Positions 59,575-61,462 of a stretch of DNA of 64,000 nucleotides are shown in pieces. This DNA is from a virus. Taxonomy: Duplodnaviria; Heunggongvirae; Uroviricota; Caudoviricetes. Made by a program: the position numbers and the translations under genes. The notes beneath the pieces were generated by a model that was not told the DNA's origin, did no database searches, and saw only the letters and a list, made by a program, of their open reading frames with translations. The stretch lies in IMG/VR virus record IMGVR_UViG_2875703104_000004; one strand, 5' to 3'. Numbering within the stretch: the stretch's first letter is position 1; each line of letters begins with the position of its first letter.

Positions 59575-59995
59575 ATGACAGTAAAAATTTCTGGCGTGCT
59601 TAAAGATGGCACAGGAAAACCAGTACAGAACTGCACCATTGTGCTGAAGGCCAGACGGACCAGCAGCACGGTGGTGGTGAACACGGTGGCCTCTGAAAAT
59701 CCGGATGAAGCCGGGCGTTACAGCATGGATGTTGAGTATGGCCAGTACAGCGTCACCCTGCTGGTTGAAGATTTTCCGCCTTCACATGCCGGGACCATTA
59801 CCGTCTATGAAGGTTCCAGACCAGGTACGCTGAATGATTTTCTCGGCGCCATGACGGAAGATGATGTCATGCCGGAGGCACTGCGCCGTTTTGAGCTGAT
59901 GGTGAATGAAGTGGCACGTCATGCCGGAGCATCATCACAGAGCGCAGCGGCAGCAAAGAAATCCGAAACTGCTGCGGCATCATCGAAGAACGCAA
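59575..59995 (+). pseudogene. stf: side tail fibre N-terminal fragment, truncated
   Basis: MTVKISGVLKDGTGKPVQNCTIVLKARRTSSTVVVNTV..; similarity ends after ..AAASSKNA at about 59992. Confidence 0.65.
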
Positions 59996-60196
59996 AAACG
60001 CTGCGAATATCACCTGAGACAATTTATAAAACGCTGTACTTTCGTAGCCGTGAAGCGCTACACCACCTGAATATACAGCATCTGCGACGGTCGCATAGCC
60101 TTCGCCATGGCAGGCGTCATACCCGCAAAGGCGAAAGAGGTATGAACCGCCCCGGGAATCCTGGAGACTAAACTTCCTGAGAAAGAGGTAAACAGG

Positions 60197-60523
60197 ATGA
60201 CTAAAAATACTCGTTTTTCCCCCGAAGTCCGTCAACGGGCAGTCCGTATGGTTCTGGAAAGTCAGAGCGAATATGACTCACAATGGGCGACAATTTGTTC
60301 CATTGCTCCAAAGATTGGCTGTACGCCGGAGACTCTGCGTGTCTGGGTTCGCCAGCATGAGCGGGATACCGGGGGCGGTGATGGAGGGCTCACCACCGCT
60401 GAACGTCAGCGTCTGAAAGAGCTGGAACGTGAAAATCGTGAACTGCGCCGCAGTAACGATATCCTTCGCCAGGCTTCCGCTTATTTTGCGAAGGCGGAGT
60501 TCGACCGCCTCTGGAAAAAATGA
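60197..60523 (+). CDS. IS3-family transposase OrfA (HTH)
   Basis: [53 protein letters not shown]..; leucine-zipper-like C-terminus. Confidence 0.85.
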
Positions 60524-61410
60524 TGCCACTGCTGGATAAGCTGCGTGAGCAGTACGGGGTCGGACCGCTATGCAGCGAACTGCATATTGCCCCGTCAACG
60601 TATTACCACTGTCAGCAACAGCGACATCATCCGGATAAACGCAGTGCCCGTGCGCAGCGCGATGACTGGCTGAAGAAAGAGATACAGCGCGTATACGATG
60701 AAAATCACAAGGTATACGGTGTGCGTAAAGTCTGGCGTCAGTTGTTACGGGAAGGTATCAGAGTGGCCAGATGCACTGTGGCACGTCTCATGGCGGTTAT
60801 GGGACTTGCCGGTGTTCTCCGGGGTAAAAAGGTCCGTACGACCATCAGCCGGAAAGCCGTTGCCGCAGGCGACCGCGTAAACCGTCAGTTCGTGGCAGAA
60901 CGACCTGACCAGCTGTGGGTGGCTGATTTTACTTACGTCAGCACATGGCGGGGCTTCGTCTATGTGGCGTTCATCATTGATGTGTTTGCCGGATACATCG
61001 TGGGGTGGCGGGTCTCATCGTCCATGGAAACGACATTCGTGCTGGATGCACTGGAGCAGGCGTTATGGGCCCGTCGACCGTCCGGCACGGTCCATCACAG
61101 TGATAAAGGTTCTCAGTATGTATCGCTGGCCTACACACAGCGGCTTAAGGAAGCCGGATTACTGGCATCAACAGGAAGTACAGGCGACTCGTATGACAAC
61201 GCGATGGCGGAGAGCATCAATGGTCTTTACAAAGCGGAGGTAATACACCGTAAGAGCTGGAAAAACCGTGCAGAAGTGGAACTGGCCACACTCACGTGGG
61301 TGGACTGGTATAACAATCGACGATTGCTGGAAAGGCTGGGCCATACTCCTCCGGCAGAAGCAGAAAAAGCTTATTATGCTTCCATCGGAAACGATGATCT
61401 GGCAGCCTGA
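60520..61410 (+). CDS. IS3-family transposase OrfB (DDE integrase core)
   Basis: ..[33 protein letters not shown].. ..HSDKGSQY.. ..[17 protein letters not shown]..; -1 frame relative to orfA across an A-run at the orfA end. Confidence 0.85.
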
Positions 61411-61462
61411 GTTCACAGATAAAACACTCTCCAGGAAACCCGGGGCGGTTCATAGCAACCTA

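Follow-up and report, generated by a model that had tools for sequence, protein, structure and literature searches.

An IS629/IS1203-group element without target-site duplication in the Escherichia coli sat-iha island, and a nearby apparent junction with a truncated prophage tail-fibre gene

Introduction

Insertion sequences of the IS3 family move by a copy-out/paste-in mechanism that usually leaves a 3-bp duplication of the target. One branch of this family, the IS629/IS1203/IS3411 isoform group of E. coli and Shigella, comprises elements of 1,310 bp with TG...CA ends, imperfect 25-bp terminal inverted repeats, overlapping orfA and orfB and an ALIL pseudoknot. Subtypes of the IS629/IS1203 group differ from each other by 4-5% (PMC3271280). 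In E. coli O157:H7, the 3-4 bp duplication was found at only 21 of 47 IS629 sites and was absent from the remaining 26 (Rump 2011, PMC3271280). IS629 has also been linked to deletions of adjacent genomic DNA ranging from a few nucleotides to more than 40 kb (Ooka 2009 and Kusumoto 2011, as cited in PMC9943667). In an experimental reporter system, deletions arose through the action of an IS3 transposase (PMC8860574).

The element described here lies near the right end of a DNA stretch of 64,000 nt, analysed as a whole and referred to below as the window. It shares its length, ends, inverted repeats, overlapping reading frames and pseudoknot with the IS629/IS1203/IS3411 group. Identical copies elsewhere carry a 3-bp duplication, whereas the copy in the window has none, and the exact variant (WP_151327001.1) is labelled by PGAP only as 'IS3 family transposase'. 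The situation resembles the IS629 polymorphisms of O157:H7 (Ooka 2009, Kusumoto 2011, Rump 2011) in that an IS copy without duplication stands beside lost DNA. It differs in that the lineage concerned here is extraintestinal-pathogenic and the deletion, inherited in 59 complete genomes, is fixed and not a strain-level polymorphism.

A second system suitable for comparison is the sat-iha segment of the aerobactin/sat/iha island of extraintestinal-pathogenic E. coli (ExPEC), as found in strain CE10, in the ST1193 strain MCJCHV-1 and in the ST131 strain 5392. Window positions 59994-64000 are 100% identical to positions 8001-12007 of the MCJCHV-1 sat-iha pathogenicity island (segment L001). In contrast to these ExPEC islands, the island DNA of the window stops 149 bp to the left of the insertion sequence and abuts phage DNA, an arrangement present in no complete genome.

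Results

We identified a complete insertion sequence of the IS629/IS1203 group (IS3 family) on the plus strand of the window at 60143-61452. Reading of the region 59400-62400 shows that this element of 1,310 bp starts with TGAACCGCCCCGGG... at 60143 and finishes with ...CCCGGGGCGGTTCA at 61452. A repeat search of the window located its left terminal inverted repeat (IRL, 60143-60167, plus strand, TGAACCGCCCCGGGAATCCTGGAGA) and its right one (IRR, 61428-61452, plus strand, TGAACCGCCCCGGGTTTCCTGGAGA), which are imperfect, 25 bp long and end in 5'-TG and CA-3'. The arms delivered by the search were 27 nt long (60141-60167 and 61428-61454), the outermost TA of each arm being part of the flank.

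Both reading frames of the element are open, overlap at ATGA and stand in a relative frame of -1. The first, orfA (60197-60523, plus strand), encodes the helix-turn-helix N-terminal part of the transposase (108 aa; Pfam HTH_Tnp_1, E 7e-13), and its exact protein sequence is recorded on at least 1000 contigs. The second, orfB (60520-61410, plus strand), encodes the DDE (rve) catalytic part (296 aa; Pfam HTH_21 and rve). OrfB is residue-for-residue identical with AAN78635.1 and AAN79736.1 of strain CFT073 and with other proteins, and its 90% cluster includes members named 'IS629 transposase OrfB'. The run of A residues at 60514-60519 (GGAAAAAATGATG) represents a putative slippery site for a -1 frameshift leading to OrfAB, and a frameshift-stimulating pseudoknot of the ALIL type is predicted at 60478-60594 (plus strand; Rfam RF01497, 120.2 bits against a gathering score of 50, E 3.6e-32). 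The same DNA is annotated in RefSeq with the programmed-frameshift transposase WP_151327001.1 and an AL1L pseudoknot. The copy at 60143-61452 is probably still active, OrfAB being made by way of the predicted -1 frameshift. An earlier note on this DNA had claimed an IS629-like element with intact inverted repeats and intact orfA and orfB; the inverted repeats, the open reading frames and the Pfam and Rfam matches all bear this out, and only its span, given there as 59992-61462, has to be corrected to the 1,310 bp delimited above.

Over its whole 1,310 bp, the element matches copies in MCJCHV-1 and in strain 167 at 100% identity, and it shares 96.2% DNA identity with a copy that PGAP names 'IS1203 family'. 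Its best match reaches at least 99% identity in 1,299 RefSeq records. A copy covering at least 80% of the element is found in 3,043 of 5,426 complete E. coli genomes, the number of places per genome having a median of 4 and a maximum of 53. Judged from its sequence, the element has the length of about 1.3 kb, the TG...CA inverted repeats, the overlapping orfA and orfB and the -1 frameshift signal of the group, and the 60143-61452 copy lacks the 3-4 bp target-site duplication. By these features it belongs to the IS629/IS1203 group; it is intact and, in E. coli, very common, and the missing duplication reflects the history of this particular copy, not the element type.

Next, we examined the flanks of the element. 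The bases adjoining it are ...gaggta on the left and tagcaa... on the right, and no 3- or 4-bp direct repeat is present there (gta versus tag; ggta versus tagc). A 2-bp 'TA' duplication was considered as well and rejected: each TA is native to a separate target, the left-hand one belonging to IS30 and the right-hand one to a neighbouring IS3-family element, as revealed by comparison with an undeleted allele in which the two lie 3.3 kb apart. The 149 bp preceding the element (59994-60142, plus strand) are an internal fragment of IS30 corresponding to nt 539-687 of 1,221 (numbering taken from the IRL position) and form part of the IS30 transposase gene. They are 100% identical to positions 8001-8149 of the MCJCHV-1 island (L001), annotated as a truncated IS30 transposase. 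The 531 bp following the element (61453-61983, plus strand) are the 3' part of an IS3-family element that PGAP leaves unnamed; they correspond to its nt 1077-1607 of 1,607 and contain the rve domain (Pfam rve, rve_2 and rve_3) and the right inverted repeat. The intact 1,607-bp element, a copy of which was seen in segment L006, has perfect 25-bp inverted repeats, and PGAP labels it only as 'IS3 family transposase'. The flanking bases quoted in the earlier note, and the lack of a 3-4 bp duplication, thus stood up to rereading and realignment, as did its placing of the right flank in the middle of another IS3-family transposase gene, here beginning at nt 1077; the left flank, which it had taken for truncated stf-associated sequence, is actually the internal IS30 piece.

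Adjoining the 1.6-kb IS3-family element is an internal fragment of the L-lactate permease gene (lldP remnant, 61984-62493, minus strand), as annotated in RefSeq for the identical positions 9991-10500 of L001; this arrangement recurs in ST131 and CE10, and the remnant forms part of the conserved island. The DNA 3' of the lldP remnant (62494-64000) contains a further degraded transposase fragment and, on the minus strand, three to four conserved hypothetical ORFs of small size. Counterparts of the small ORFs in the references are WP_001327722.1, WP_000266542.1 and WP_001521284.1, and they are kept in all island alleles examined.

The order of genes in the MCJCHV-1 island is sat, a transposase fragment, the truncated IS30 transposase, the IS3-family transposase (frameshift), an N-terminally truncated IS3-family transposase, the lldP fragment, the small ORFs and iha. 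CE10 has the same neighbours, with the IS fragments, the lldP remnant and the small hypothetical ORFs in the same order. In MCJCHV-1 and CE10, the two genomes examined in this respect, the IS30 fragment runs to its own left end and then on to sat, and in all three genomes examined (MCJCHV-1, CE10 and ST131 5392) the island adjoins sat, not a prophage. The host of the element is evidently the sat-iha island of extraintestinal-pathogenic E. coli, namely the transposon-littered region between sat and iha.

Megablast search with 59400-62400 found 59 complete E. coli genomes matching 59994-62400; among the matches listed, identity is 100% and all alignments begin exactly at 59994. Of the 5,426 complete E. 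coli genomes, exactly 59 were matched by queries restricted to the junctions (30+30 nt each), and each of these has both IS junctions, in two places, all of them chromosomal; every match has at least 99% identity, and those among the matches listed have 100%. The carriers include O7:K1 strain CE10 and ST1193 strains, and the presence of the deleted allele in both suggests either that it is old or that the island has moved between lineages.

ST131 strain 5392 (segment L005, NZ_CP103465.1) carries the undeleted allele, in which IS30 (1,221 bp) is intact and the IS3-family element has its full 1,607 bp. The left flank of our element aligns to L005 up to position 2653 (...gaggta/cgattaac) and the right flank from position 6001 (...taaggcg/tagcaacc). 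The IS629-like copy exactly replaces the 3,347 bp in between (L005 2654-6000 of the ST131 5392 allele), which hold IS30 sequence (the 3' half), a fragment of IS600, a small ORF and 1,076 nt from the 5' end of the 1.6-kb IS3-family element. The undeleted form is ancestral, because an IS30 and a 1.6-kb element that have each lost a half cannot regain it. No duplication is seen because the two flanks come from sites originally 3,347 bp apart, and since both junctions are inherited together in 59 genomes, we are dealing with an old IS-associated deletion within the island. At least two alleles of the sat-iha island accordingly occur among complete genomes, the undeleted one seen in ST131 5392 and the deleted one of the 59 genomes. 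In the undeleted allele of ST131 5392 the hypothetical ORF measures 456 nt, and the full 1.6-kb IS3-family element has an internal stop.

Two other copies serve as controls for simple insertion. The identical copy in strain 167 is flanked by gtt on both sides, and an IS1203 copy residing inside IS30 on plasmid pMS1718-1 is flanked by cac on both sides (3-bp duplication).

The prophage side of the apparent junction consists of the N-terminal 419 nt of a tail-fibre gene (stf, 59575-59993, plus strand; Pfam phage_tail_N PF08400, 229 bits), which form the end of an assembly piece. This gene ends at 59993, 149 bp to the left of the IS start at 60143. The insertion sequence is not located at the tail-fibre breakpoint and neither of its termini abuts the truncated stf, the intervening 149 bp being internal IS30. 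The prophage part of the window (approximately 33193-59993) corresponds to the MCJCHV-1 prophage at ompW/trp, and between stf at 59579-59993 and its counterpart in that prophage (L002, to position 11182) there are 0 mismatches over the 415 nt compared. In MCJCHV-1, the closest complete genome, stf has its full length (2 kb, although annotated as frameshifted), and beyond it come two small ORFs and the attachment end. Neither the distal stf with attR, nor the island DNA 5' of IS30, nor the 3,347-bp deleted segment occurs within the 64-kb window.

The same distance of 149 nt is found on both sides of the 59993/59994 joint. The stf sequence stops 149 nt past the last base that separates it from a paralogous copy at 58556-58970, and the IS30 piece begins 149 nt before 60143, the first base that distinguishes the remnant from intact IS30. 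The stf copies at 58556-58970 and 59579-59993 are 94.7% identical, their last 149 bp are the same, and both end at the same stf coordinate, at which the 58556-58970 copy is followed by different DNA. Both sides of the joint are repeat-limited ends of equal technical length without overlap and therefore carry the signature of unconnected assembly nodes. There is no microhomology at 59993/59994 (zero shared bases), on which ground microhomology-mediated joining was rejected. The stf-IS30 joint is absent from the 5,426 complete E. coli genomes, and a 38-mer spanning it gave 0 matches each in the viral, the species-representative genome and the metagenome contig collections. Exact look-up of the 198-aa chimeric stf-IS30 ORF found nothing on record.

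Similar boundaries are scattered over the window, which contains 69 Ns, two runs of 21 N included; single Ns or 21-N runs sit at the boundaries of pieces. Self-comparison showed ends of pieces repeated at an offset of exactly 150 (17838-17988 and 17988-18138; 23817-23971 and 23967-24120), and stutters with a gap, in which 129 bp are repeated after 21 N (31091-31219 and 31241-31369; 33710-33838 and 33860-33988). Restarts that are not colinear with the reference were found as well, L002 positions 3976-4706, 4124-4656 and 4074 onward following one another. Positions 51537 and 52071 are single Ns, and a further N (50803) closely precedes 50805/50806, a boundary with no separator. The region 50649-50962 belongs to the same pattern of repeated ends; single Ns stand at restarts where one reference segment occurs two to three times. 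From all this, the window looks like a string of overlapping assembly pieces joined without merging.

Next to the truncated stf, the last 150 bp (58158-58307) of the piece ending at 58307 recur as the initial 150 bp of the piece that begins at 58970, and these two are separated by a paralogous lom-stf piece (58308-58972, 93-97% identical). Since overlapping pieces are split by a paralogous one, the order in the window is not the physical order. As written, 58012-59993 reads as an apparent tandem lom-stf / lom-stf, in which the first lom is without 127 bp (joint 58307/58308). The second lom-stf copy starts in the middle of a gene at 58970, and 11 Ns lie at 59120-59291, a stretch partly missing from the first lom. 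The tandem is probably not a real duplication, two paralogous prophage branches of the assembly graph having been listed serially.

Single ambiguous bases occur also inside coding sequence, as at 56524 in the J gene, giving an X in the 1,230-aa J protein. Other single Ns were noted at 17234-17788, 23660-23663, 30945 and 33442-33480. Such isolated ambiguous bases suggest low-confidence consensus or collapsed paralogues.

Discussion

The earlier note suggested that IS-mediated deletion or recombination had removed the distal tail-fibre and integration region. The deletion part of this proposal stands, 3,347 bp having been replaced by the element, and the part concerning the prophage has to be abandoned, as the lost DNA is IS debris of the island. 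We consider it quite probable that the whole structure is explained by a common IS629-type element, an old deletion in the island and, at the stf-IS30 joint, abutted assembly pieces. The course of events that we propose for the island is as follows. The IS629-like copy would have inserted at IS30 nt 687 or at nt 1077 of the 1.6-kb IS3-family element. The loss of the DNA between the two sites would then have followed, through a transposase-driven deletion that set out from one end of the IS or through homologous recombination of two copies in the same orientation. The deletion is old and has been passed on without change to at least 59 complete genomes, the length of the ancestral loss being assumed equal to that measured on the ST131 allele.

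As for the 59993/59994 joint, we infer that it is very probably an assembly artefact, two unconnected nodes having been written in succession. Were it real, illegitimate recombination or a duplicative translocation would have put part of the sat-iha island beside a prophage whose stf was cut at nt 419. This we regard as very unlikely, although the window reads through the joint without any N between the pieces, unlike some of its other boundaries, an open 198-aa chimeric ORF is created, and prophage tail-fibre regions and IS-rich islands are both prone to recombination. Against it speak not only the lack of microhomology and of any match in the collections searched, but also the map of the near-identical MCJCHV-1 chromosome. 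There the prophage lies at 2.64 Mb and the island at 0.83 Mb, 1.8 Mb apart, and the joint would link position 2,644,079 to position 835,241 in the same orientation, amounting to a 1.81-Mb deletion (37% of the chromosome) that, judging from these map positions, a viable cell would not carry as a simple event. Both sides, moreover, end exactly 149 nt from the nearest distinguishing base, the 94.7%-identical stf copy breaks off at that coordinate too, with different DNA behind it, and more than ten other non-colinear joints with 150-bp stutters are present in the window. In its most specific form, a non-homologous event with zero microhomology would have moved the IS-rich end of the sat-iha island beside the lambdoid prophage in an ST1193-like strain; if true, this would represent a prophage-island fusion with a chimeric Stf-IS30 ORF, and we hold it to be highly improbable. 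Hardly credible is the idea that the IS629-like element itself mediated the loss of the distal tail fibre together with the attachment end of the prophage. Such a role might be read from the position of an IS without duplication within 150 bp of a truncated stf, and from the adjacent deletions for which IS629 is known (PMC9943667). The stf breakpoint, however, is not at an IS end, 149 bp of IS30 lying between them; 59 complete genomes have both IS junctions in identical form, with IS30 continuing to sat in MCJCHV-1 and CE10; and the DNA replaced by the element is known and is not phage DNA. For the IS ends, the alignment with the undeleted allele and the junction result in the 59 genomes refute this idea. 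A probable artefactual origin of the joint is the reading that we retain.

How the 3,347 bp were lost within the island can be pictured in two ways. One-step loss would be a transposase-driven adjacent deletion. The other course requires two independent insertions of IS629-like copies, one into IS30 duplicating GTA and one into the 1.6-kb element duplicating TAG, followed by RecA-dependent recombination that deletes the interval and leaves a hybrid copy. The latter would yield exactly the structure seen, the element is abundant and often multi-copy (see the numbers of places per genome above), and an independent insertion of IS1203 into IS30 is known from pMS1718-1; we give this course somewhat less than an even chance. 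Its predicted intermediates are GGCGGTTCA-GTACGATTAAC and TTTTAAGGCGTAG-TGAACCGCC, with the junctions AACCCGGGGCGGTTCA-GTACGATTAACATAGTG (IS right end and the rest of IS30) and GATTTTAAGGCGTAG-TGAACCGCCCCGGG (1.6-kb element and IS left end). Neither predicted intermediate junction was found in the 5,426 complete genomes, which is weak evidence against two copies, as the event may be old. In this set, a 406-nt chimeric query produced only two-piece, non-contiguous matches, a 134-nt query restricted to the junctions produced no full junction (best match 55 of 67 nt at 89%), and no genome was found with the IS at just one of the two sites together with its own duplication. In favour of the one-step deletion are the adjacent deletions documented for IS629 (PMC9943667) and those caused experimentally by an IS3 transposase (PMC8860574). 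The sequence itself does not tell one-step adjacent deletion and two-copy recombination apart.

The IS structure itself is nothing new, its exact form being already present in public complete genomes deposited as early as that of CE10. The element, the missing duplication and the deletion that it marks are routine in IS-rich E. coli islands and have little biological weight, and the prophage rearrangement is in all likelihood only apparent. What remains is a lesson in data quality. The window is composed of overlapping pieces, with 150-bp stutters, single Ns as separators and alternative paralogous branches placed in series. Rearrangement junctions found in it, the tandem lom-stf copies and the seeming truncation of the prophage among them, need read-level support before they are given a biological reading.

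Other features of the window

The left part of the window (1-26332) belongs to a different lambdoid prophage, closest to the one located beside sitABCD in ABU 83972 (98.5%). Its head and tail genes are present twice, in 1-16662 and again in 16662-26332, at 92-99% identity, and the jump back at 16662 falls inside the tail-fibre region of this prophage. Both copies of this prophage type contain, in the portal-gene region, a repeat that is absent from the ABU 83972 reference and could be real or an assembly stutter: a perfect 117-bp tandem repeat (offset 116) at 589-821 and 21991-22223.
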